Origin: Paracoccaceae bacterium
GTDB lineage: Bacteria > Pseudomonadota > Alphaproteobacteria > Rhodobacterales > Rhodobacteraceae
DNA length: 64,000 bases
Assembly (NCBI GenBank): GCA_011389955.1
Contig: JAABTI010000001.1
Coordinates: 17,589 to 81,588, forward strand
Reading direction: 5' to 3'
A program made the translations under genes and the position numbers. Under the pieces are notes generated by a model. It was not told the origin of the DNA. It saw nothing but the letters and a program-made list of their open reading frames with translations, and did not search any database. Below are positions 1,699 through 35,339 of the stretch, piece after piece (the stretch's first letter is position 1; each line of letters opens with the position of its first letter).

Positions 1699-2148
1699 AT
1701 GGAATTCAACAGTCACATGCAGGCGGCGCTGGCCGAGGCCCGTGCCGCCGCGGCGCGCGGCGAGGTGCCGGTGGGCGCGGTGGTGATCGGGCCGGATGGC
1801 GCGATGCTGGCACGGGCGGGCAACCGCACGCTGGAGTTGCGCGACCCGACCGCCCATGCCGAGATGCTGGCGATCCGCGCCGCCTGTGAGCACCTGCGCA
1901 GCGAGCGGCTGACGGGGTGCGCGCTCTACGTGACGCTGGAGCCCTGCCCGATGTGCGCGCAGGCGATATCGGCGGCGCGCATCGCGCGGCTTTACTACGG
2001 CGCGGCCGATCCCAAGTCGGGCGGCATCGCGCAGGGGCCGCGTATTTACAGCCACGCGCAATGCCACCACGTGCCCGAGATTTATGACGGCATTGGCGCG
2101 GCGCAGGCCGAAGCCCTGCTCAAGACCTTTTTCGCCGCGCGCCGGTGA
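1699..2148 (+). CDS. tadA: tRNA adenosine deaminase / nucleoside deaminase
   Basis: GEVPVGAV, DPTAHAE and TLEPCPMC zinc deaminase motifs. Confidence 0.88.
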   Translation: MEFNSHMQAALAEARAAAARGEVPVGAVVIGPDGAMLARAGNRTLELRDPTAHAEMLAIRAACEHLRSERLTGCALYVTLEPCPMCAQAISAARIARLYYGAADPKSGGIAQGPRIYSHAQCHHVPEIYDGIGAAQAEALLKTFFAARR

Positions 2149-2166
2149 CGCCCGGGCGGTCGCGCG

Positions 2167-2862
2167 TCACAGCGTGATCGTCTCCATCACCTCGGGAGTG
2201 AGGACATCGACGCCGGGAAGGGCCGCGACCATGGCGTCGGCCGATTGTTCCAGCAGCGGAAATGTCTTGTAGTGGCAGGGGATCACCGTCCTGAAGTCGA
2301 AGAACCGCTTGGCGGCGTAGGCGGCGCGTTTCATGTCCATGGTGAAGTGTCCGCCGGCGCACAGGATCCCGATATCGGGTTGGTGCAGGTCGGCCAGCAC
2401 CTCCATGTCGGCCATCACGTCGGTATCGCCGGACACGTAGATCGTGTGCCCCTCGCCCGCGATCATGAAGCCCGATTCGTGCCCCGTATAGACCGGGGTT
2501 CCGTCATCACCGGCCAGCGAGGAGGAATGCGCCGCGTTGACCATGGTGACCGCCACGTCGCCCAGCATCACCGTGCCGCCCTTGTTGAAGCCGACGGTTT
2601 CGATTCCGTGCCGGTTTTCCAGCCATCCCGCCAGGTCGAAGATGGTGACGACGGGGATGCCCAGCTCCTGCGCGATGGGGGCGGCATCGTTGACATGGTC
2701 GAAATGGCCATGAGTGACCAGGACATGCGTGGCGCCGGCGATCGCCTCGGCGCGCCTTTCCTCGGGGAATGTCGGGTTGCCGGTGACCCAGGGATCGATC
2801 AGCAGGATCTGGTCGCCGATCTCGATGCGAAAGCCGGAATGGCCGAGCCAAGTGAGTTTCAT
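2167..2862 (-). CDS. Metal-dependent hydrolase, metallo-beta-lactamase fold (UPF0173-like)
   Basis: Start re-set to [11 protein letters not shown]; THGHFDH, SGDT and IPCHY motifs. Confidence 0.88.
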
Positions 2863-3013
2863 TGCCGTGGTCCTTCTGTCTGGTGAACAATCGTGCGGGG
2901 GACAGCCTATCACGACATGCGGCCGCGGCCAGTGGGCGAGAGCGGGGCGATACGCTTGCAGGCGCGCGGCGAGGGCGCTAAACGCGGAGGCGACAGGAAT
3001 ACGGAGCTTGGCC

Positions 3014-3301
3014 ATGTCCATCGATCTCGAAACCGCCGCCCGCGTGGCGAAACTGGCGCGCATTCGCGTGGGTGATGACGCGCTGCCGGAACTGGCGGCT
3101 GAATTCAACAACATCCTGGGGTTCATCGAGCAGCTTGGCGAGGTTGATGTCGAGGGTGTGGAACCGATGACCAGCGTCACGCCGATGCGCCTGAAGCGGC
3201 GCGAGGACGAGGTGACCGATGGCCATCAGCAAGACAAGGTGCTGGCCAATGCGCCCGATGCGCGCGAGGGCTTTTTCGCGGTGCCGAAGGTGGTGGAATG
3301 A
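3014..3301 (+). CDS. gatC: Asp/Glu-tRNA amidotransferase subunit C
   Basis: [17 protein letters not shown]...FFAVPKVVE; overlaps the gatA start (ATGA). Confidence 0.95.
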
Positions 3302-4782
3302 TGTCTGACATGAGCAAGATGACGCTGACGCAGGCGCGCGATGCGTTGCGCGCGGGCGAGGTGACCAGCGCCGAGCTGACCGAAAGCTTCCTAGGACGGA
3401 TCGATGCGGCGGGCGCGCTCAATGCCTTCGTGCACAATACGCCGGACCTGGCGCGCGCGCAGGCGGCCGCGGCCGACCGGCGCATCCAGGCGGGCGATGC
3501 GCCCGATCTGTGCGGTATTCCGCTGGGCATCAAGGATCTGTTCTGCACCGAGGGCGTGCCGAGCCAGGCGGGCAGCCGCATCCTGGAAGGGTTCGTGCCG
3601 CAATACGAATCCACCGTCACGCGCAACCTGCGTGAGGCGGGCGGCGTGATGCTGGGCAAGCTGAACATGGACGAGTTCGCCATGGGCAGTTCCAACGAGA
3701 CCAGCGTTTACGGCGATGCGGTCAACCCGTGGAAGGTGGATGACCGCGCGTTGACGCCCGGCGGCTCTTCGGGCGGATCGGCGGCGGCGGTGGCTGCGGA
3801 TCTGTGCGTCGCGGCCACGGGCACCGATACCGGCGGATCGATCCGGCAGCCGGCGGCGTTTACCGGGATCGTGGGGATCAAGCCCACTTACGGGCGGTGC
3901 TCGCGCTGGGGAATCGTGGCCTTTGCCAGTTCGCTGGACCAGGCCGGCCCGATGACCAAGACGGTACGTGATTCGGCGATCATGCTGGGCGCGATGGCCG
4001 GGCATGACCCGCGCGACAGCACCAGCGCCGACATCGCGGTGCCGGATTTCGAGGAGATGCTGACCGGGGACATTCGCGGCAAGGTGATCGGGATTCCGCA
4101 AGAATACCAAGTCGATGGAATGCCGAAAGAGATCAGTGACCTTTGGGCAAATGGCACCGAGATGCTAAAGTCTGCGGGTGCTGAAATTCGCTGGATTTCG
4201 CTGCCGCACACGAAATACGCGTTGCCGGCCTATTACGTGATCGCTCCGGCGGAAGCGTCCAGTAACCTGGCGCGCTATGACGGGGTGCGCTATGGCCATC
4301 GTGCCACGCTGGAGGCGGGCGAGGGCATCGTCGAGATGTACGAGAAGACGCGCGCCGAAGGCTTTGGCGCCGAAGTGCAGCGCCGCGTGATGGTGGGCAC
4401 CTACGTGTTGTCGGCGGGGTTCTACGACGCTTATTACAACCGCGCCCGCAAGGTGCGCACGCTTATCAAGCGCGATTTCGACCAGGCGTTCGAGGCGGGG
4501 GTCGATGCGATCCTGACGCCCGCAACGCCGTCGGCGGCGTTCGGGTTGGGCGAAATGAGCGATGCCGACCCGGTGCAGATGTACCTCAACGACGTGTTCA
4601 CGGTGACGGTAAACCTGGCTGGTCTGCCCGGAATCAGCGTGCCCGCGGGCCTGAACGCGCAGGGCTTGCCACTGGGGCTGCAACTGATCGGGCGCCCGTG
4701 GGAAGAGGGCGATCTGCTGAACACCGCCTATGCGCTGGAAAGCGCGGCGGGGTTTGTGGAAAAGCCTGCGCAATGGTGGTAG
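3298..4782 (+). CDS. gatA: Asp/Glu-tRNA amidotransferase subunit A
   Basis: Amidase signature [32 protein letters not shown] and [13 protein letters not shown]. Confidence 0.97.
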
Positions 4783-4820
4783 AACGCCGGTAAAACCACG
4801 ATCAGGCGGGATCACGAGAG

Positions 4821-5615
4821 ATGCGGTATACGACCTATGGCGCGGCCCTTGGGGCCGCCTTCGCCGTGTTGGCGGGCTGTGCCCCCACGGTGCCGGACAG
4901 CGGCGCCGGCGTCGGCTTTGGCAACTATGACAGTTATGCCCAGCAGCAGGCCGCGCGCGAGGCGCAGTTGAGCGGCCAGCAACAGTCGAGCGCGAGCGGG
5001 CTGGCGCAGCAGCAGGACGATACCATGACTGGCGCGCCGCTGTCGGCGACGGGGCAGGCGATGGCGCCGTTACCGCCCGATGAGCAGGAAGCCGATGGTC
5101 AGGAGCAGGTCGATCCGGTCGATCAACTGGCCGCCGACACCGCCGCCGCGCTCAATTCCGGCGAAGAGCCGTTGCAGGCCGATCCCAACAACCCGCCGCC
5201 CGAGGCGGTCAACGAGATGGGCATTTCCCGGGAAAACGATTTCGACGATGTGTCGGGCCTGCGCAGCATCGAATCCGATGCCGAGAGGATTGAGCGCAAC
5301 CGCGATCAATACGAGGTGGTTCAACCCGAGGCCCTGCCGGAGCGCGAGGGCAAGGAAGGGCCGAACATCGTGGCCTATGCGCTGCGCACGACCAACCCGG
5401 TGGGCACGCCGTTGTACAACCGGATGACGCTGTTCGACACCGAGGCGCGGACGAAGCGCAACTGCGCGAAGTATCCATCCGCCGACCAGGCGCAGATCGA
5501 TTTCCTGGAGCGCGGCGGCCCCGAGCGGGATCGGCTGGGTCTTGATCCCGATGGCGACGGGTTCGCTTGCGACTGGGATCCCGAGCCTTTCCGCAGCGCG
5601 CGCGACGCGGAGTGA
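4821..5615 (+). CDS. Acidic lipoprotein with C-terminal Excalibur-like Ca-binding motif
   Basis: Lipobox LAGC; low-complexity D/E/Q-rich middle; C-terminal NC...LDPDGDGFAC. Confidence 0.7.
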   Translation: MRYTTYGAALGAAFAVLAGCAPTVPDSGAGVGFGNYDSYAQQQAAREAQLSGQQQSSASGLAQQQDDTMTGAPLSATGQAMAPLPPDEQEADGQEQVDPVDQLAADTAAALNSGEEPLQADPNNPPPEAVNEMGISRENDFDDVSGLRSIESDAERIERNRDQYEVVQPEALPEREGKEGPNIVAYALRTTNPVGTPLYNRMTLFDTEARTKRNCAKYPSADQAQIDFLERGGPERDRLGLDPDGDGFACDWDPEPFRSARDAE

Positions 5616-6334
5616 TCTGCGTGCCGACGGCGGCGCATGACGGTGCGTTGTGGCATCCCTCGCCCAATTGCGGCGCGCGCCGCGGCGGGGCCCTGCCTGA
5701 TACGGTGGTTGTGCATTACACCGCGATGGCCAGCGCCGAGGCGGCGCTGGCGCGGCTGTGCGATCCGGGTGCGGAGGTGTCGGCGCATTACCTGATCTGC
5801 GAGCGCGGGCGGCTTTGGCAACTGGTGGCGGAGGCGGATCGCGCTTGGCATGCGGGGGCCGGCCGGTGGGGCGCTGTGGGTGATGTGAACTCGGCCTCGA
5901 TCGGTATCGAGCTGGCCAATCGCGGCGATCATCCGTTTCCCGATCCGCAGATGCGCGTGCTTGAGAAGGTGCTGAGCGGGGTCATTGGGCGGTGGAGCAT
6001 CCGGCCCGAACGTGTCATCGCCCATTCCGACATGGCGCCCGAGCGCAAGCGCGATCCCGGCGCGCGGTTCGACTGGCGGCGACTGGCGCGGGCGGGGCTG
6101 TCGATCTGGCCCGAGGCGGCGCCGGCGGCAGAAGAGCGCCCCGACGCGGCGCGGTTGCGGAAACTGGCGGAGCGGATCGGCTATGACCCGCGGGCCAGCG
6201 ACGCGGCGCTGTTGTCGGCGTTGCGGCTGCGGTTTCGGCCATGGGGACGCGGGCCGCTGTCGGCGGCGGATATGGGCGTGGCCGTTGACCTGGCGCGCCG
6301 CTTTCCCGTTGACCGGGGCGATGTGAGCGCATAA
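5612..6334 (+). CDS. N-acetylmuramoyl-L-alanine amidase (Amidase_2/AmpD-like)
   Basis: VVVHYTA, VSAHYLI, RAWHAG, NSASIGIEL and HSDMAPERKRDPG motifs. The in-frame GTG at 5612 overlaps the upstream TGA; exact start is uncertain. Confidence 0.9.
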   Translation: MICVPTAAHDGALWHPSPNCGARRGGALPDTVVVHYTAMASAEAALARLCDPGAEVSAHYLICERGRLWQLVAEADRAWHAGAGRWGAVGDVNSASIGIELANRGDHPFPDPQMRVLEKVLSGVIGRWSIRPERVIAHSDMAPERKRDPGARFDWRRLARAGLSIWPEAAPAAEERPDAARLRKLAERIGYDPRASDAALLSALRLRFRPWGRGPLSAADMGVAVDLARRFPVDRGDVSA

Positions 6335-6336
6335 AT
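6309..6336 (+). promoter_or_regulatory. Putative sigma70-like promoter for rnpB within the amidase 3' end
   Basis: TTGACC at 6309-6314, then ATAAAT at 6331-6336, about 9 nt before the RNA 5' end. Confidence 0.45.
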
Positions 6337-6344
6337 GCCGAGAC

Positions 6345-6751
6345 GCGCGGAGGGCTGGATGGCCGCGGCGCGGCATCGTCCGCGTCGAGGAAAGTCCGGA
6401 CTCCACAAGGCAACGGTGCCGGGTAACGCCCGGCCGGGGAAACCCGAGGGAAAGCGCCACAGAGAACAGACCGCCGGCCACCACGGCCGGTAAGGGTGAA
6501 ACGGTGGGGTAAGAGCCCACCGGGGGGCTGGCAACAGCGCCCGCATGGCAAGCCCCACCGGGAGCAATGCCAAATAGGGGCCCCGCGCGGGTTGATCGGG
6601 GCGCAAGCGCCGATATCACCGCAGGGCACGTCTTGGCCCGGGGGCCCGGGTTGGCAGCTTGAGGCGCGCGGGTAACCGCGCGTCCAGAGGAATGGTCATC
6701 CACCGCGCCGTAAGGTGCGGGGACAGAATCCGGCTTACAGGCTCTCCGCGC
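6345..6751 (+). ncRNA. rnpB: RNase P RNA, class A
   Basis: Conserved GAGGAAAGTCCGG, GGGTGAAACGG..GGTAAGAGC, GAGCAA..CCAAATAG and 3' ACAGAATCCGGCTTA; the 5' and 3' ends pair as P1 (GCGCGGAG...CTCCGCGC). Confidence 0.97.
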
Positions 6752-6857
6752 TTCATTTATGGCGGTTAAGCGGTTGACTCGCGCCGCGCCATGCGTAAAA
6801 GGCGAGGTTCATGAGAATTTCACGGGCGGAGCGTCTGCCCGGCGCAGGAGAATACCA

Positions 6858-7025
6858 ATGGCGAAGCCGACGACCATCAAGATCCGTCTGAACTCGACCG
6901 CGGGCACGGGCCATTTCTATGTGACCAAGAAGAACGCCCGCACCATGACCGAGAAGATGACGGTGCGCAAATACGACCCCGTCGTGCGCAAGCATGTTGA
7001 GTACAAGGAAGGCAAGATCAAGTAA
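6858..7025 (+). CDS. rpmG: 50S ribosomal protein L33
   Basis: [26 protein letters not shown]...[18 protein letters not shown]; AGGAG SD upstream. Confidence 0.97.
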
Positions 7026-7053
7026 GTGATCGATGCCTTTCGTGATGCGGATC

Positions 7054-7078
7054 AGGCCACGCAGAGCGTGGCCTTTTT
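7054..7078 (+). terminator. Rho-independent terminator after rpmG
   Basis: AGGCCACGC-AGA-GCGTGGCCT hairpin followed by a T run. Confidence 0.8.
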
Positions 7079-7117
7079 CATGTCCGCCTCTTTGAAAATG
7101 AGACGCAGGATCAGGCC

Positions 7118-7816
7118 ATGCCGAAGGAAGGGCATTACGTGAACCGCACGGGGTGGCTGAGGGCTTCGGTTCTTGGCGCCAATGACGGGATCGTGTCCAC
7201 GGCCAGCTTGCTGGTCGGGGTGATCGCGGCGGGGATGGACCATGCCAACGTGGTGTTGACGGGGTTGGCGGGGTTGACCGCGGGGGCGTTTTCGATGGCG
7301 GCGGGGGAGTATGTTTCGGTCTCGGCGCAATCCGATACCGAGGCGGCCGACCTGGAGCGCGAGCGCCGCGCCTTGCGCGAGGACCCGGACTACGAGTTGG
7401 ACGAGTTGACGGCGCATTTCGCCGATAACGGCGTGCAGGGCGCCCTTGCCCGCGAAGTCGCCGTGCAGATGACCGAGCATGATGCGCTGGCCGCGCATGC
7501 GCGTTCGGAACTGGGCCTGTGGGAGGAAAGCGCGGCAAATCCGTTACAGGCGGCGTGGTCATCTGCGGTGAGCTTTGCCGTGGGGGCGGGATTGCCCCTG
7601 CTGGGGGTGTTGATGATGCCGGACGCCTCGGTGCCCGTGGGCATCGCGGTGGTGGCGGCGATGACCCTGCTGGCGCTTCTGGCACTGGGGGCGATGGGCG
7701 CGCATATGGGCGGCGCGCCGATCCGGGCCGGGGTGTTGCGGGTGCTGTTCTGGGGGTCGGTGGCGATGGCGGTGACCGCCGGTGTCGGACGACTGTTCGG
7801 GGTGACCATGGCCTGA
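7118..7816 (+). CDS. VIT1/CCC1 family Fe/Mn transporter
   Basis: WLRASVLGANDGIVS and AGAFSMAAGEYVSVS motifs; multiple TM segments. Confidence 0.92.
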   Translation: MPKEGHYVNRTGWLRASVLGANDGIVSTASLLVGVIAAGMDHANVVLTGLAGLTAGAFSMAAGEYVSVSAQSDTEAADLERERRALREDPDYELDELTAHFADNGVQGALAREVAVQMTEHDALAAHARSELGLWEESAANPLQAAWSSAVSFAVGAGLPLLGVLMMPDASVPVGIAVVAAMTLLALLALGAMGAHMGGAPIRAGVLRVLFWGSVAMAVTAGVGRLFGVTMA

Positions 7817-7850
7817 GACGCTGCGGGCCTGCGCGATCGCGCCGCGCAGC

Positions 7851-7881
7851 AAAAAGGGCCGGTCGCGTCGCGCCGGCCCTT
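7851..7881 (-). terminator. Terminator hairpin between the convergent VIT and yccA genes
   Basis: AAAAAGGGCCGG...CCGGCCCTT inverted repeat with a T tail on the minus strand. Confidence 0.7.
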
Positions 7882-7907
7882 GGCTAATGTCTGGAGGTGT
7901 GGCTGCG

Positions 7908-8684
7908 TTATTCCTGCTGGCCCATGAACATCAGCAGGAACTGGAACATGTTGAGGAAGTCCAGGTAAAGACTGAGTGCTCCATGAATGGCGGACTTGTC
8001 CAGCCAGTCCTGATCGCCATGCGCGGCATGTTGCAGATACTGGTTCTTGATGTGCTGGGTGTCATACGCGGTCAGTCCGGCAAAGATCAGCACACCGAGC
8101 GCCGAGATCGCGAACATGATCGCCGAAGACGCCAGGAAGATGTTGACAATCATCGCCACCAGCAGGCCGATCACGCCCATGATCAGGAACGATCCCCAGC
8201 CCGAGATATCCTTTTTCGTGGTGTATCCCCACAGCGACAGCCCCGCAAAGGCGATGGCCGTAACCAGAAATGTCTGCACGATCGAGAAGGAGGTGTAGAA
8301 GATGAAGATCGAGCTGAGAGCCACGCCGATCAGCGTTGCGAACACGAAGAAGAACAGCTGCGACGCCTGCGCCGATGCACGCTGCATCACAGTGCCGAAG
8401 CCGAAGACCATCAACAGCGGCGCGAACATGATTACCCATTTCAGCGGTGTCGTGTAGATCAGCGCGCCGAAATTCGTCAGCATCTTGCCGTTGCCGATCT
8501 CGCCCACCGCCATCGCCGGGTCGGTCGTGGTTGCCAGGCCCGAGATTGCCCATGCCGCCAGCGCCGTGATGAGCATGCCCCCGGACATGGTCGCGTAGAC
8601 CTTGTTCATGTGGGCGCGAAGCCCCGCGTCAATCTGGGCGGCGCTTCTGCCGGCCGCCGACCGGATCGTGTTCAAATTAGCCAT
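7908..8684 (-). CDS. Bax inhibitor-1/YccA family membrane protein
   Basis: IDAGLRAHMNKVY, GYTTKKDISGWG, TAYDTQ and ALSLYLDFLNMF motifs. Start re-set to MANLNT with a GGAGG SD. Confidence 0.92.
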   Translation of the reverse strand: MANLNTIRSAAGRSAAQIDAGLRAHMNKVYATMSGGMLITALAAWAISGLATTTDPAMAVGEIGNGKMLTNFGALIYTTPLKWVIMFAPLLMVFGFGTVMQRASAQASQLFFFVFATLIGVALSSIFIFYTSFSIVQTFLVTAIAFAGLSLWGYTTKKDISGWGSFLIMGVIGLLVAMIVNIFLASSAIMFAISALGVLIFAGLTAYDTQHIKNQYLQHAAHGDQDWLDKSAIHGALSLYLDFLNMFQFLLMFMGQQE

Positions 8685-29287: not shown

Positions 29288-31533
29288 GCCGCGCAGGCAA
29301 GATCACGCGCCGCGCGTTGCTGTTCGGGACGGTGGCCGTGGCGGGCGGTGTGGCGCTGGGCTATTACGTGGTGCAGCATCCGCATGACAACCCGCTCGAG
29401 CCGCGGCTGGAGCCGGGCGAGGCGACGCTCAACCCTTATGTCCTTATCGATGCAGAAGGCGTGACGATCATCACCCCGCGTACCGATATGGGGCAGGGCG
29501 CACATTCCATCCTGGCGGCTATGGTGGCCGAGGAACTGGATCTGGCGTGGTCGGATATCAGGGTGTCCGACGGCCCCCCGAGTGCGGCCTATTACAACGC
29601 CAAGGTCGCGGCCGAGGCGCTGCCCTTCGCGGCCACCGATGACGGGTTTCTGGCGCGCAATGCACGCGCCTTCGGTGGAAGCATGGCCAAGGTGCTGGGC
29701 CTTCAGGTCACGGGTGGATCGACGACCGTGCCCGACGGGTTCGACCGCATGCGCATGGCAGGCGCTGCGGCGCGGCAGATGCTGATCGAAGCGGCGGCCG
29801 AGGTGACGGGCGTGGCGCGGGCCGACCTGGACACGCGCGATGGCCATGTCGTGACGCCCGATGGCAAGGCGATCGCTTATGTCGACCTGGCGCAGCAGGC
29901 CGCCGGGATAGCCCCGCCAGACGAGGTGACACTGAAATCGCCTGATCAGTGGCGCTACCTGGGACAGCCGATGGAGCGGCTGGATATCGTCGCCAAGTCA
30001 ACCGGAACGCAGGTCTATGGCATAGATATCGACTTGCCTGACATGCTTCATGCCACGGTGCGCACCAACCCGCGTCGCGGCGGTGTGGTTCGTGGCTACG
30101 AGGCCAGCAGGGCCGAGAAAATGCCGGGGGTGAAGACGGTCGTGTCCGTCACCGGCGGCGCCGGCGTGATCGCCGACACCACCTGGCGCGCAATGCGCGC
30201 GGCGCAGGAGATCGATTTCGATTGGGGCGAAGCGCCCTATCCGGCTGATAGCGCGCAAATGTGGACGCAGCTTGAAGCATCATTCACCGAAAGCTTGCAG
30301 GATTCCCGTTTCCGCGACGATGGCGATGTCGAGGCGGCGCTGGCGCAGGCGGCTGACGGGGTGCTGGAGGCGCAATATCGCGTGCCGTATCTGGCGCATG
30401 CGCCGCTGGAGCCGATGAACGCCACCGCGCGGCTGAAGGATGGGCGCCTGGATATATGGGCTTCGACGCAGATTCCGATGTACGTGATGGCCACGGCCAA
30501 GCGTCTGACCGGGCTGGAGGCGGAAAACATCCACCTGCACAACCAATATGCCGGCGGCAGTTTCGGGCGGCGGCTCGAGGACGATTTCATCGCCGGGGCG
30601 ATCGAGGTCGCCATGGCCGCCGAAGGCCGCCCGGTCAAGATGACGTGGACCCGCGAGGAGGACATGAGCCATGATTTCCCGCGCCCGATGGCGGTGTCGC
30701 GGGCGCGCGGCGCGGTGGCGAATGGCCAGGTAGCGGCGCTCGATCTGTCGCTGGCTTCGCCCTCGGTCTCGCAGTCGCAGGGCGGGCGGGTGAACCAGCC
30801 GATGCCGGGGCCGGACGTGATGATCGTGGCTGGCGCGTGGGATCAACCCTTTGCCATCCCCGATTACCGGGTCACCGGCTACCGCGCGCAGCCGATGGTG
30901 CCGGTAAGCTCCTGGCGGTCGGTGGGGGCGTCCGGAAACGGCTTCATGCATGACTGTTTCCTCGACGAGTTGATCCATGCCGCGGGGGCCGATCCGTTGC
31001 AGGAGCGATTGCGCCTGTGCGACGACCCGTTGTCACGCGGAGTGCTGGAGGCGGTCGGCGAAATGTCGGGCTGGTCCGGGCCTGACATGGGCGACGGGCG
31101 CGGGCGCGGCGTGGCTTTCACGCTGTCATTCGGGGTGGCGGCCGCCGAGGTCGTCGAGGTCAGCCAGACCGATAGCGGGCTGCGCATCGACAAGGTTTTC
31201 GTCGCCGTCGAGGTGGGCAGAGTGCTGGACCCGGTGAATTTCGACAACCAGGTCAAGGGCGCCGTCATCTGGGGGCTGGGCCATGCGATGAACTGCGAAT
31301 TGACCTACCGGGACGGAATGACCGAGCAGCGCAATTTCGACAGCTACCAGGGGATGCGCCTGTACCAGGCCCCACATATAGAGGTGCGGGCGTTGGAAAA
31401 CGGCGATACCTTGCGCGGCATCGGGGAGCCGCCCGTGCCGCCCGCCGCGCCGGCGCTGGCCAACGCGATCTTCGCCGCGACCGGGAAGCGCATCCGCGAA
31501 CTGCCGCTGAACCGCCAGGTGAGCTTTGCATGA
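29284..31533 (+). CDS. Molybdopterin-binding subunit, xanthine dehydrogenase family (IorB-like)
   Basis: Twin-Arg-like [36 protein letters not shown] and GIGEP motifs. Confidence 0.9.
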
Positions 31534-31898
31534 GCGATGGCCGCGCCGACGACCAGCCCTGCCTGCGCCTGCGGGTCGTGTTCGGGCCGGGGGCGATGCT
31601 GGGCCCGGGCAAGGCGGACCTTCTGGCCTTGATCGAGGAGACGGGCTCGATCTCGGCGGCGGGGCGACGGATGCGGATGAGTTACAAGCGCGCATGGACC
31701 TTGGTTGAAACGCTGAACACGCTCTTCGCGGCACCGCTGGTCGCCAGTAGCCGGGGCGGCGAGGGCGGCGGCGGCGCGCGGCTCACCGAGGTGGGGCGCG
31801 AGGTGCTGGCGCGCTACCGGGCGCTGGAGCGGCGCGCGGCCGATGCGGGGGCGGATGACATCGCGGCGCTGGAGGCCCTGCGCCGGGGGAATGGGTGA
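31530..31898 (+). CDS. ModE-type winged-HTH protein (no TOBE domains)
   Basis: LGPGKADLL..IEETGSISAAGR.M.MSYKRAW...GG..GGGARLT pattern; 122 aa. Confidence 0.85.
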   Translation: MSDGRADDQPCLRLRVVFGPGAMLGPGKADLLALIEETGSISAAGRRMRMSYKRAWTLVETLNTLFAAPLVASSRGGEGGGGARLTEVGREVLARYRALERRAADAGADDIAALEALRRGNG

Positions 31899-32151: not shown

Positions 32152-32308
32152 AATGACCGCTGTCAGCCCGAAGCGGACCTAAGGTCCCAGACGCCGATTT
32201 GCGATAGCTGACCTTCGCTGCGCGGGTCACGAAGTGGTAAGATGCGGGACTTAGCTGCCGTGCGGAGTTTGAAAACGAACAACTGCTTTACAGCCCGAAG
32301 CGGGCACG
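32152..32308. repeat. Left array of 4 degenerate ~30-bp quasi-palindromic units
   Basis: Right arms AGCGGACCTA (32172), AGCTGACCTT (32206), AGCTGCCGTG (32253) and AGCGGGCACG (32299); exact 13-mer CAGCCCGAAGCGG at 32164 and 32291. Confidence 0.65.
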
Positions 32309-32338: not shown

Positions 32339-33562
32339 CTAGTGAAACACTCGGAATATAGCGTTTAGGAGTTGATCCAATTCAGAAAATTCGGTCCGTA
32401 GAGCGATTGGGTCTCGAGCCTCCTTCATTTTGCCCAGAAACCGCTGCGTGATTTGGTCTTTGTGCTCCAACGCTCCTTGATAGCGACCTATCTGCTTGTT
32501 CCATCCAGTCCAACGGATAGGATGAAGCCTACCATTTCCATCGCTTAAAGCTTCCCTCCCCAAGAACAGTTCAATCGAGCTGGCAGTACCATTAACATCC
32601 ATCCGTCGTTCGCCTTCGGGACCGATTGTTGGATAGTCTTTTGCCAATTCAATCTCTGGCAGCACCATCGTCTTGATATTGTTCGGCAGCTCTTTGATGC
32701 TGTTGACAAAGCTCTGTTCAGCCAAACCTGCTGCATCGTTGTCAAACAGGGCTAAGATGGGTTGATCCAGCCTGACACCTGCAAGGGTCTTCACCATTTT
32801 GGTGAGCATAGAAGCACCACCGTCAATGCTGAACTCCTCAAAATCTAGGAATTGGAACATATCGGAAAACTCAGGATACAACGCCTGGATCGCCGTAGAT
32901 AAGATCTTGGTGTCAGACCTACCTTCCGTCAGGATGAGTACTGTGCCAGTTTCGCGTAGAAACTCTTGATCGTCATCCTCAAAGATATGCAATCGCCGTA
33001 GGTTCTGGTGGACGCTGAATTCAGGGTCGAACTCGTCAGCATATGATGCGAGGTCAGTCCAAACATACTCTGGCTTAAAATACTCGAGCTCGAGCGCTAA
33101 GCTTGCGAACATATCGACCAGATCAAACTCAACAAAGCCCCTTCGTATCCAATGATCATGGCCCAACGAATTTGCTCGTTCTAGCCAGCCCTCGAAGTTC
33201 AGGCCTTTTTGCGATGCAATGTCTTGATCAAGATCGATCCCATCGCGCTCGTTCATTTCTTCGAGCTTCTCAATGTGCTTTAGATACTCACGCTCCCAAA
33301 GTTCTCGACAACGCTCGTCAGTGTAGCCTTGGATATGTAGTCTGCGCCGCACGTTCTCTGCAGGTGCCAGCAGGTATGTCAGCTCGGTCTCTTCATCATC
33401 GAACCATTCGAGCGCTTTCTTCCGCACCACAGGATGGGCGGTTTTGACGGTACGTCGATACAAATCACCATTTGCAAAACACATTGTGCAGGCGTGCTGC
33501 CAGGCCATAGAGAGATCGCCAAATGCGCGTTCATCCAGATAGACATCGTTTTCGTCGCTCAC
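32339..33562 (-). CDS. Stand-alone OLD-like TOPRIM protein with a HEPN/TOPRIM-associated-type N-terminal region (407 aa); low GC, probably acquired
   Basis: GTG start at 33562 after a GAGGTG SD. TOPRIM motifs ILTEGRSD (catalytic E), DGG and ALFDND (DxD), plus YPTIGP, DVNG..SSIELFLG and YQG. GC is about 50% against about 67% in the flanks. Confidence 0.8.
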   Translation of the reverse strand: MSDENDVYLDERAFGDLSMAWQHACTMCFANGDLYRRTVKTAHPVVRKKALEWFDDEETELTYLLAPAENVRRRLHIQGYTDERCRELWEREYLKHIEKLEEMNERDGIDLDQDIASQKGLNFEGWLERANSLGHDHWIRRGFVEFDLVDMFASLALELEYFKPEYVWTDLASYADEFDPEFSVHQNLRRLHIFEDDDQEFLRETGTVLILTEGRSDTKILSTAIQALYPEFSDMFQFLDFEEFSIDGGASMLTKMVKTLAGVRLDQPILALFDNDAAGLAEQSFVNSIKELPNNIKTMVLPEIELAKDYPTIGPEGERRMDVNGTASSIELFLGREALSDGNGRLHPIRWTGWNKQIGRYQGALEHKDQITQRFLGKMKEARDPIALRTEFSELDQLLNAIFRVFH

Positions 33563-33665
33563 GAATTCACCTCGTTTTTTTGGACTACCGATTGCACGCA
33601 TGCGGACCAAAGGCCAATAAGGCGATAATGTACTCGATTGATCTTGATGCAGAAAGACGCATTGC

Positions 33666-33872
33666 TACGTCCGCTTTTATCCCATCTATGCCACTAATGT
33701 CAGACGCAGCATCCGGAACTATGGGCTCGCACCCGGCATTAGCTGCATTTAATTTGAAGGTCCGCTGTCGGGAAACGGCCTCAAATTTGCAAACCCCGCT
33801 CCCTGCGCATAGCTGCCGTTCGTGCACATTGCGGCGTTGGTCAACATGGCTTCGAGCGGAACCTTCGCCGCA
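33666..33872. repeat. Right array of 5 degenerate ~30-bp quasi-palindromic units
   Basis: Left arms at 33666, 33711, 33757 (AAGGTCCGCT), 33791 and ~33836; right arms AGCTGCCGTT (33811) and AGCGGAACCTT (33855). Shares TAGCTGCCGT, ACCTTCGC and CCGCTGTC with the left array. Confidence 0.65.
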
Positions 33873-34004
33873 CCATGCGCCGGGGCCGCAGTGAGGCGAA
33901 GGGGGTGTTCGGGTTGGTTTTGGAGCGTGGTCGAGGTGGTCTTGAGCGGAGATGCCGTATAGCACCCTACGCGGAATCAAGGCCGCAGGCCGCCGCGCGT
34001 CGCC

Positions 34005-34059
34005 GGGCCGCCCGTCGCACCGAAGGTGCGCGGCCCATCATCGGCACGCCTCTGGCGTG
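34005..34059. repeat. REP-like double hairpin
   Basis: GGGCCG..CGCACC-GAA-GGTGCG-CGGCCC followed by CACGCC-TCT-GGCGTG. Confidence 0.45.
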
Positions 34060-34196
34060 ACGGCACGGCGATTTGGCTGGCGGCAGCGCAACGCATGAAT
34101 GTTATTCGGACCCGGCTGGCATGAAGCGCCCCGCACCGACGGTGGATCGCCGCACCGCGGCCCGGCGAGGCGCGGCTGGTCAACCGGGCGCCGCGC

Positions 34197-35339
34197 TCAC
34201 CCCACCCGCAGCCCCCGCACCCATGTGCCGCGCAGCACCGGCGTGCCGTCGATGCGGGCGACGCGCACGAGGTCGGCGCGCAGGCCCGGGGCGATGCGCC
34301 CCCGGTCCGTCAGGCCGGTGGCGCGGGCTGGCGCGTCGGTGACGGTGGCGATGCCGCGCGCCATGTCATCCCACAGATCGCCCAGCATCACCGCCGCCGA
34401 CAGCAGCGCCGAGGGCACGTAATCGGACGACATGATGTCGATCAGCCCGGCCCCGGCCAGGTCCGCGGCGGCCACGTTGCCGGAATGCGAGCCGCCGCGG
34501 ATCAGGTTGGGCGCGCCCATCATCACCGCGATCGCGTGCGCGTGGCAGGCGGCGGCGGCCTCTTGCGTGGTGGGGAACTCGGCGATGGTGGCGCCGTGGC
34601 CGGCCGATGTGGCCACCTGCGCGGCGGTGGTGTCGTCGTGGCTGGCCAGGGTCGCGCCAAGGCGGTGGGCGGCGGCCACCGCGCCGGCCTCGTGCGCGGC
34701 GCCGAGCCTTTGGCGCAAGCTGCGCTGGTTGGCGACGTGATCGGCGAATTCATCCTCGGACAGGCCATGCTTGCCGCACACGTAGGTCCGGAGCTTGTCG
34801 ATGTCGCGGAACTGGCGTTCACCGGGGGTGTGATCCATCAGGCTGACGATGCCGACGCGGTCCTCGGCGGTGAACTCGTCGAGTTCGTCGAGCAGGGTTT
34901 CCGAGCAGACCTCGGCGCGCAGGTGCAGGTAGTGGCTGATCCTCAGGGCGTCGCGCGCGCGCAGGTCCATGAGTTCGCTGGCCAGTTGGCGGGCGTATTT
35001 GCCGTAGTTGGTGCGCTCGTTGCTGACGACGGAGCCCACGCGCATCGCGTCGAACACGGTGGTGATGCCGGTGCCGGCCAGCTCGGCGTCGTGAGCGACG
35101 ATGGCGCTGGCATGGGGCCAGTTGACGCCGGGGCGCGGCGCGATGTGGCGTTCGAGGTTGTCGGTGTGCAACTCCACCAGCCCCGGCAGCAGCATGTCGC
35201 CGTGCATGTCGAGCGCGCCGCGTGGCATGGCAGCGGCGGTGTCGATGTCGTGGATCACGCCGTCGCGCAGGCAGACCGCCCCGGAGACGGTGCTGTCGGG
35301 CAGCACCAGCGTGGCGTTGGCGAGGATCGTTTCGGTCAT
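34197..35339 (-). CDS. phnM: Alpha-D-ribose 1-methylphosphonate 5-triphosphate diphosphatase
   Basis: PGLVELHTDNLE, MDHTPG.RQF, ASHDD, GAPN..RGGSHSGN and SSDYVP motifs. Confidence 0.95.
   Translation of the reverse strand: MTETILANATLVLPDSTVSGAVCLRDGVIHDIDTAAAMPRGALDMHGDMLLPGLVELHTDNLERHIAPRPGVNWPHASAIVAHDAELAGTGITTVFDAMRVGSVVSNERTNYGKYARQLASELMDLRARDALRISHYLHLRAEVCSETLLDELDEFTAEDRVGIVSLMDHTPGERQFRDIDKLRTYVCGKHGLSEDEFADHVANQRSLRQRLGAAHEAGAVAAAHRLGATLASHDDTTAAQVATSAGHGATIAEFPTTQEAAAACHAHAIAVMMGAPNLIRGGSHSGNVAAADLAGAGLIDIMSSDYVPSALLSAAVMLGDLWDDMARGIATVTDAPARATGLTDRGRIAPGLRADLVRVARIDGTPVLRGTWVRGLRVG

Follow-up and report, generated by a model that had tools for sequence, protein, structure and literature searches.

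The gene and its insertion site

A gene encoded in a contig of a Paracoccaceae bacterium is described here; the window is the whole stretch of DNA analysed, with a length of 64,000 nucleotides. A single uninterrupted frame of 407 amino acids with a GTG start codon lies at 32339-33562 on the minus strand, between two genes of the host core and with a cluster of short repeats on either side. The features of the locus are the following.

31530..31898, plus strand: ModE-like wHTH gene, host core flank (ModE repressor domain TIGR00637, E=8e-25, below the cut-off)
32154..32260 (up to 32305), plus strand: repeat cluster of the left border, on the 3' side of the gene, with motifs at 32154, 32211 and 32244 and a partial second copy at 32291; also present at this site in the congeners and scattered through the host family
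32339..33562, minus strand: HEPN/Toprim-NTD1 and TOPRIM gene, candidate single-gene defence nuclease, 407 aa
33567..33573, minus strand: Shine-Dalgarno sequence GAGGTGA, 4 nt upstream of the GTG start
33759..33875, plus strand: repeat cluster of the right border, on the 5' side of the gene, with motifs at 33759, 33789 and 33861
34197..35339, minus strand: phnM, host core flank (TIGR02318, above the cut-off)

The GTG start is preferred to an alternative in-frame TTG start at 33610, since most of the close homologs are 405-408 aa long. The first-pass annotation had described an open frame of this length with a Shine-Dalgarno sequence of its own, lower in GC content than its surroundings and placed between a modE-like gene and phnM, and it is borne out on all these points. 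The gene has a GC content of 0.492 and a GC3 of 0.53, as against 0.74 and 0.89 in the ModE-like flank and 0.715 and 0.92 in the phnM flank, and lies between the two within some 1.6 kb of lowered GC content. No sigma70-like promoter of the gene was found. In two other studies, sequencing runs yielded contigs that cover most of the gene, and it is therefore no artefact of assembly; runs X4 and X6 have zero letter differences from the window gene in the listed pieces, and run X9 carries a slightly diverged variant with 17 differences across a 910-base piece. Comparison with four homologs at 71-76% identity gives a dN of 0.13-0.25 and a dS that exceeds 1.2 or is saturated for both halves of the gene, so that both encoded domains are under purifying selection. 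The gene is horizontally acquired and foreign to its host.

Within the genus, the content of the modE-phnM junction varies, and the junction is an insertion hotspot. All three congeners match the window up to about 32154-32247 and then carry different cargo, that of G001 comprising NERD/Zn-ribbon and VIT1 genes and that of G002 and G003 being, as judged by eye, IS-like sequence. The assemblies of the congeners all break at this junction (G001 at L096/L097, G002 at L100/L101 and G003 at L098/L099), so that none of them displays an empty site.

Arrays had been proposed to flank the gene; the borders are made up instead of short dispersed repeat motifs, and tandem arrays are not present. The same left-right bracket encloses a pair of HTH_17 and PIN genes elsewhere in the source genome and a HEPN_AbiU2 gene in G090, and the repeat sites beyond the window lie at G000:C148:8830-10270 (L212), G090:C1:2610211-2611086 (L164) and G073:C12:280708-298988 (L158, L159). 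The left motif occurs in G073 in 18 copies, as against 1 for the reversed control, and several of these cluster between accessory genes. The longest adjacent frame is directed toward the motif in 15 of 23 copies from five genomes, which places the motif mostly at the 3' ends of genes. Low-GC accessory genes of the host family are bracketed or punctuated by the repeats, and include the TOPRIM gene, HTH and PIN, HEPN_AbiU2, NERD, VIT1, GST, adenylate cyclases and DUF805. The motifs have no match in Rfam, and no attC-like core was seen by eye in the flanks of the gene in the source genome, which is 59% complete; the repeat family resembles an integron-like cassette system with no evident attC.

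A profile made of the host-family copies only gave 0 nhmmer matches (E<=1) in the 1.1 Mb surrounding homologs of the gene at 80 loci (the best 80 of 109). The repeats are therefore considered to belong to accessory-gene sites of the host, and the idea that they are a part of the gene family was rejected. They were rejected also as the ends of an integrase-IS91 element, as the motif is present in 2 of 22 such loci and an identical copy of the integrase lacks it. The middle motif is located just upstream of a pair of tyrosine recombinase and IS91-like transposase genes at L116/L182 (G069:C2) and at L183, where it may mark a target site and not the end of an element. Scans of the genome with loose regular expressions gave shuffle-level counts for three of four patterns, and the flanks fold no better than shuffled sequences, bar one 61-nt piece with a z of -2.5. 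A joint of 33822 to 32200 in a contig of run X7 (37 nt on its side) was considered as an excised circle and set aside, a paralogous repeat being the simpler explanation.

At 33899-34192 of the window lies a further repeat, GC-rich, dispersed and about 250-290 nt long; G001-G003 carry copies at 72-82% identity, and C151 and C164 of the source genome carry partial ones. The sediment runs X4, X6 and X7 reach a depth of 2,000-8,000 in the bins 33948-34215, which suggests that the repeat is very abundant among related organisms.

Domain organisation and the lineage of the TOPRIM domain

The 407-aa protein comprises two domains, the second of which carries the residues expected of a nuclease. Conservation is given for a set of 405 sequences, which are all the retrieved proteins of at least 360 aa, duplicates included.

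32951..33562, minus strand: N-terminal domain, aa 1-204, PF18871-like; candidate sensor or inhibitor
32339..32950, minus strand: TOPRIM domain, aa 205-407; nearest is the TOPRIM domain of retron Eco2 (type I-C)
32912..32926, minus strand: E213-G-R-S-D217 motif, matching E374/D378 of Eco2; both residues 405/405
32735..32743, minus strand: D274-N-D276 (DxD) motif, matching D460/D462 of Eco2; 404/405 each, profile-aligned
32570..32578, minus strand: S329-I-E331, matching S513/E515 of Eco2; E331 403/405 and S329 341/405, the IE profile-aligned
32459..32461, minus strand: K368, candidate catalytic lysine and putative equivalent of K562 of Eco2; 400/405

The sole Pfam match of the protein is HEPN_Toprim_N (PF18871), at an E-value of 6e-4 and 20.3 bits as against a cut-off of 25. 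This family has been assigned to 72 of 93 full-length aligned homologs (best E-value 1.9e-25), the nearest Atlas clusters (0.98) are PF18871 proteins, and a profile of the N-terminal domain of the family recovers five PF18871-positive proteins with E-values of 1e-8 to 1e-15. The first-pass annotation had likened this region to the N-terminal domain associated with HEPN and TOPRIM, and the likeness holds, with the window protein in a divergent alphaproteobacterial branch that falls under the Pfam cut-off. Modelled alone, the N-terminal domain has a pLDDT of 89.5; it has no Foldseek match at E<=0.001 and its best VIA Z-score among 48,161 chains is 3.6, which is not proof of a new fold. The domain is acidic, with 47 D and E residues to 24 K and R and a net charge of -23 (the median of the family is -16). 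TOPRIM is its dominant partner, being present in 89 of 91 new matches of the N-terminal domain (the other two proteins are of 250-258 aa) and in five of five PF18871 matches in genomes; no fusion to HEPN or Mrr was recovered among these 91 and five matches.

An AF2 model of the entire protein (pLDDT 89, pTM 0.88) has a TOPRIM fold at residues 205-407. The TOPRIM assignment made earlier is supported by the model and by matches to TOPRIM structures in Foldseek and VIA-align; in place of the OLD-like character that had been ascribed to the domain, a retron type I-C-like affiliation is the better supported, the fold being shared with OLD but the profile match to it poor. The five top rows of Foldseek are all Eco2, with 9lm3 as the best (E=4e-5). 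In VIA-align, Eco2 (9i2f) has a Z-score of 9.0 with 163 residues aligned at 3.5 A, followed by OLD of B. pseudomallei (7.6, 144 residues, 3.6 A), OLD of T. scotoductus (6.7) and GajA (6.5), while small Toprim and primase chains have scores of 6.4-7.0; the margin of 9.0 to 7.6 is modest and the identity to the Eco2 domain is about 20%. HHalign of the family against nine type I-C retron TOPRIMs gives a probability of 96.4 over 173 columns (95.8-96.4 across the comparisons made), as against 19.7 over 60 columns for 12 OLD-type TOPRIMs. PADLOC at E<=0.01 assigns at most 25 of the 93 homologs to RT-Toprim_I-C, two to GajA, one to AriAB and none to Old, and the OLD-like_TOPRIM family of Pfam (PF20469) matches two of the 93, weakly. 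A full-length system match of the 407-aa protein is absent from PADLOC-DB 2.0, in which only partial matches to RT-Toprim_I-C were obtained (E 0.03-0.06), and a sequence search of the PDB gave no significant match.

A tree of TOPRIM domains with 39 rows, in which the family is sampled by the window protein, 16 of the 80 loci and L191 (L210, L211, L199, L202, L187, L189, L190 and L130 being left out), has the NTD1-TOPRIM family monophyletic (99/99) and beside the retron TOPRIMs (93/92, unstarred and with long-branch warnings). The family has an insert of its own within the domain, YPTxGP...W...YQG. Type I-C TOPRIMs have been described as a lineage separate from OLD (Mestre et al. 2020). Structure, profile, PADLOC and tree all place the TOPRIM domain of the window protein nearer to the lineage of the type I-C retrons (Eco2) than to that of OLD, GajA or AriB.

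Eco2 requires E374/D460/D462, D378/S513/E515 and K562 (PMC12405507), and judged by the alignment the catalytic residue set of the window protein is complete. The equivalence of K368 to K562 is the least direct part of this set, because the profile alignment is 4 columns off the retron lysine. Of the motifs named in the first-pass annotation, ILTEGRSD, FDND and SIE all occur in the protein and are conserved; conservation of the fourth, DGG, is confined to its glycines, the aspartate D247 being found in 10 of 93 homologs. The absence of a Walker A motif and of a zinc finger had also been proposed: no Walker A motif occurs in the 407-aa protein, and its lone CxxC (CTMC) is not conserved.

The affiliation of the domain bears on what it may cut. 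TOPRIM effectors cut DNA in Gabija, Wadjet and the OLD of Eco8 and tRNA in others (PMC12405507, PMC12916289). The protein could accordingly be pictured as a single-gene anti-phage or anti-plasmid DNase, in which TOPRIM nicks or degrades DNA in the manner of class 1/2 OLD and GajA and the N-terminal domain recognises foreign DNA or a phage protein. The OLD and GajA domains are also among its structural neighbours, the catalytic set is common to Eco2 and class 2 OLD (PMC12405507), the N-terminal domain has been reported with an Mrr-like DNase (PMC3710099) and many homologs are plasmid-borne. We nevertheless regard this as unlikely, as Eco2 comes first in the profile, PADLOC, structure and tree comparisons and the strongly acidic N-terminal domain is unlike a DNA-binding sensor. 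RNA is the likelier substrate because the nearest nuclease is the type I-C retron TOPRIM of Eco2. The N-terminal domain does not by itself fix an RNA substrate, since it has been reported in fusion to the Mrr DNase too.

Spread of the family and its neighbourhoods

The family profile retrieves 2,107 clusters at 50% identity, with matches in Pseudomonadota, Actinomycetota, Bacillota, Bacteroidota, Acidobacteriota, Chloroflexota and Cyanobacteria, on 50 plasmid records and on one phage record. In the host family it was absent from all 400 genomes sampled, and PF18871 was found in five of 400 genomes of the phylum. The family is thus wide yet sporadic in its distribution, and mobile. An intact homolog of 445 aa (WP_050296630.1; L130:5314-6651) is encoded in the E. 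coli IncX7 plasmid NZ_CP067270.1, adjoining an AbiEii gene, and a Yersinia ruckeri plasmid has a homolog with alignment statistics equal to those of this protein.

Gene organisation was studied in the best 80 of 109 genome loci. Proteins of 381-488 aa, and none longer, are encoded in 71 of these 80, the remaining nine having shorter, split or contig-end-cut proteins. Among the broken copies, that of L009 is truncated by an IS, as seen by eye, and those of L011 and L048 are split into two frames, which is consistent with the turnover of a costly gene. Tandem divergent copies were observed in Pseudovibrio (L003:8001-10662) and Micromonospora (L076:7380-9960), the two copies sharing 138 and 114 identical residues respectively over about 410-430 aa. 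A C4 antisense RNA and a tRNA lie upstream in L003, suggestive of a P4-like satellite hotspot, and a WYL gene lies upstream in L076.

No neighbour family recurs in more than four of the 80 loci (best 80 of 109). The top neighbours, which are IS21 genes, SDRs, kinases and a pair of genes of the Clostridium clade, are found in four loci each at most, and a conserved partner gene was rejected. Reverse transcriptase was detected neither in the window protein nor in the ORFs of the same 80 loci, and no fused form of 812-2315 aa was found, the last being weak evidence. The stand-alone organisation that had been proposed for the gene is therefore supported within this sample.

The pair of the Clostridium clade comprises a conserved gene of 565-595 aa closely downstream in four loci of Clostridium and Intestinibacter (L022, L031, L032, L035) and a 395-aa gene in three of them; neither matches PADLOC and the association is clade-specific. 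Small uncharacterised genes are located directly beside the homolog in two to three unrelated loci (L040, L043 and L060, of 250-286 aa; L007:9230-9808 and L009:8693-9328), and such recurring small neighbours may be additional genes of defence islands.

The contexts of the gene are not conserved (neighbour families in at most four of 80 loci, best 80 of 109) and so do not constitute a shared housekeeping setting. This bears on the idea of a housekeeping or RNA-processing TOPRIM resembling RNase M5, or of an inactive relic carried as cargo. TOPRIM folds do include housekeeping enzymes, and the small Toprim and primase chains are among the structural neighbours of the domain. We consider this idea very improbable in view of the absence from the 400 sampled host-family genomes, the foreign GC content and the varying contexts; the relic reading in particular is disfavoured because the catalytic residues are strictly retained and the gene is under purifying selection.

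Defence genes were sought among 282 neighbouring ORFs, at most two per side within 3 kb, which were picked mechanically and are in some cases spurious. A system-specific PADLOC match (E<=1e-20) within two ORFs was obtained at 19 of the 80 loci and at none of the other 61 (best 80 of 109), cross-matches to IstB, kinase, protease, Fic, WYL and partial MzaA being discounted. The neighbours include genes of CBASS, Avs4, LmuA (Lamassu), QatC, DndC, DrmMI (DISARM) with IetAS and Old, and further AbiE, SoFic, restriction-modification (RM) genes and PDC candidates. Four of 100 control ORFs from the window and the loci of related genomes match PADLOC, all as generic ATPase or helicase; these control ORFs are housekeeping genes of one host family and are not matched for mobility. 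With this reservation on the control, the defence context that had been expected of the homologs is corroborated. An effector role in the CBASS of L067 was considered and rejected, as that system has a membrane-type gene of its own upstream.

The same neighbourhoods may be read in terms of a self-contained toxin-antitoxin, addiction or stress module, or of an orphan effector that needs an unlinked factor of the host or of a mobile element, with no primary anti-phage role. Homologs are carried on plasmids and adjoin IS elements and recombinases, the repeat bracket of the source genome encloses an HTH-PIN pair as well, and 61 of the 80 loci (best 80 of 109) are devoid of a close system-specific defence match. 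In a fused single protein, however, classic post-segregational killing is impossible unless the protein is cleaved. The range of defence systems among the neighbours also speaks against such a module, as does the lack of a recurring antitoxin-like partner at these loci (best 80 of 109), and we judge it rather improbable.

Proposed function and relation to known systems

The reading that we favour, with slightly better than even confidence, is that of a nuclease for abortive defence that is encoded by one gene and most likely acts on RNA, in which the N-terminal domain would be both brake and sensor. The anti-phage role is suggested by the genomic context. By analogy with Eco2, the protein is likely to be a nuclease and RNA its likely substrate. 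The isolated TOPRIM domain of Eco2 is toxic and is an RNase, and the full-length Eco2 is not toxic (PMC12405507); the active site is kept closed by an msDNA cage, and tRNA cleavage follows once a phage nuclease has stripped this cage away (PMC12916289). A protein that stands alone and has the catalytic set of Eco2 would need a brake of its own, and the N-terminal domain, as the only conserved candidate, is therefore read as this brake. From the toxicity of the bare Eco2 domain and the absence of any other regulator we infer that the N-terminal domain may both restrain the nuclease and sense infection. It would hold the nuclease inactive until a phage signal frees it, and the freed nuclease would likely cut host RNA, for example tRNA, and bring translation to a halt. 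As a matter of speculation, the acidic N-terminal domain may stand in for the msDNA cage of Eco2.

A more far-reaching form of this proposal, which we hold only tentatively and consider doubtful as a whole, envisages a widespread class of one-gene anti-phage tRNases. The acidic N-terminal domain of unsolved fold, a possible nucleic-acid mimic or phage-protein sensor, would replace the cage of RT and msDNA, and the effector of the I-C retrons would be sister to the family or derived from it. In the host family it would have been delivered into an undescribed, repeat-bounded cassette system, distinct from integrons, together with HEPN-AbiU2, NERD and PIN toxin genes.

The retron Eco2/Ec67 (9LM3, 9I2F, 9S1F) is alike in having the nearest TOPRIM, the layout of EGxxD, DxD and S/K-x-E and a single protein-coding gene. 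It differs in having an RT N-terminal to the TOPRIM, where the window protein has a 204-aa N-terminal domain of unsolved fold. As to the upstream msr-msd ncRNA of the retron, the flanks in the window have no Rfam ncRNA match, and the upstream regions of 13 close homologs, compared by eye, seem unrelated and show no evident conserved RNA. OLD, GajA and AriB share the TOPRIM fold and the two-metal acidic site (Z 6.5-7.6) but rely on an ABC ATPase or UvrD partner, whereas the family of the window protein has no fused ATPase, no recurrent ATPase neighbour and no UvrD partner (best 80 of 109 loci). As a system it would be a variant of TOPRIM-effector defence with a nuclease of the retron I-C type and with neither RT nor ATPase.

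The architecture of NTD1 and TOPRIM and its role in defence were already predicted in 2013. Anantharaman et al. reported NTD1 in fusion to two HEPN families, TOPRIM and an Mrr-like nuclease, in Abi-like architectures (PMC3710099); the two-domain architecture is the same as that of the window protein, and a TOPRIM lineage, a substrate or an experiment is not given in the available parts of that paper. NCBI names the related proteins, plasmid homologs included, after the HEPN/Toprim-NTD1 domain. A supplement of DefensePredictor lists the E. coli PF18871 protein WP_210764027.1 as a predicted novel defence gene with a mean log-odds of 4.08, and PF18871 is placed in its 'novel_pfams' sheet and was not found among the known defensive Pfams in the portion at hand (PMC13092281); the protein is partial, with 278 aa, and stands there as a prediction only, with no validation row among the available supplement rows. 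NTD1 goes without mention in the available text of PMC10440598, PMC13069673 and the DARNA preprint. No experimental study of the NTD1 and TOPRIM fusion was found in a literature search in which the slash-joined name was unsearchable and which left subscription journals largely outside. What is new in the current analysis is the link to the RNase lineage of Eco2, the full catalytic set, the stand-alone status (80 loci, the best of 109), the defence neighbourhood and an N-terminal domain for which no structural relative was found in the comparisons above.

The surprise is limited, because the idea of defence dates from 2013 and tRNA-cleaving TOPRIM effectors have precedents in PARIS and Eco2. 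Testing is made easy by the intact homolog on the E. coli plasmid. If the proposal is true, the family would represent a defence system that is small (about 410-440 aa), found in many phyla and uncatalogued in PADLOC 2.0; it would give PF18871 its first function and would show that an effector of the retron I-C type can be controlled without reverse transcription.
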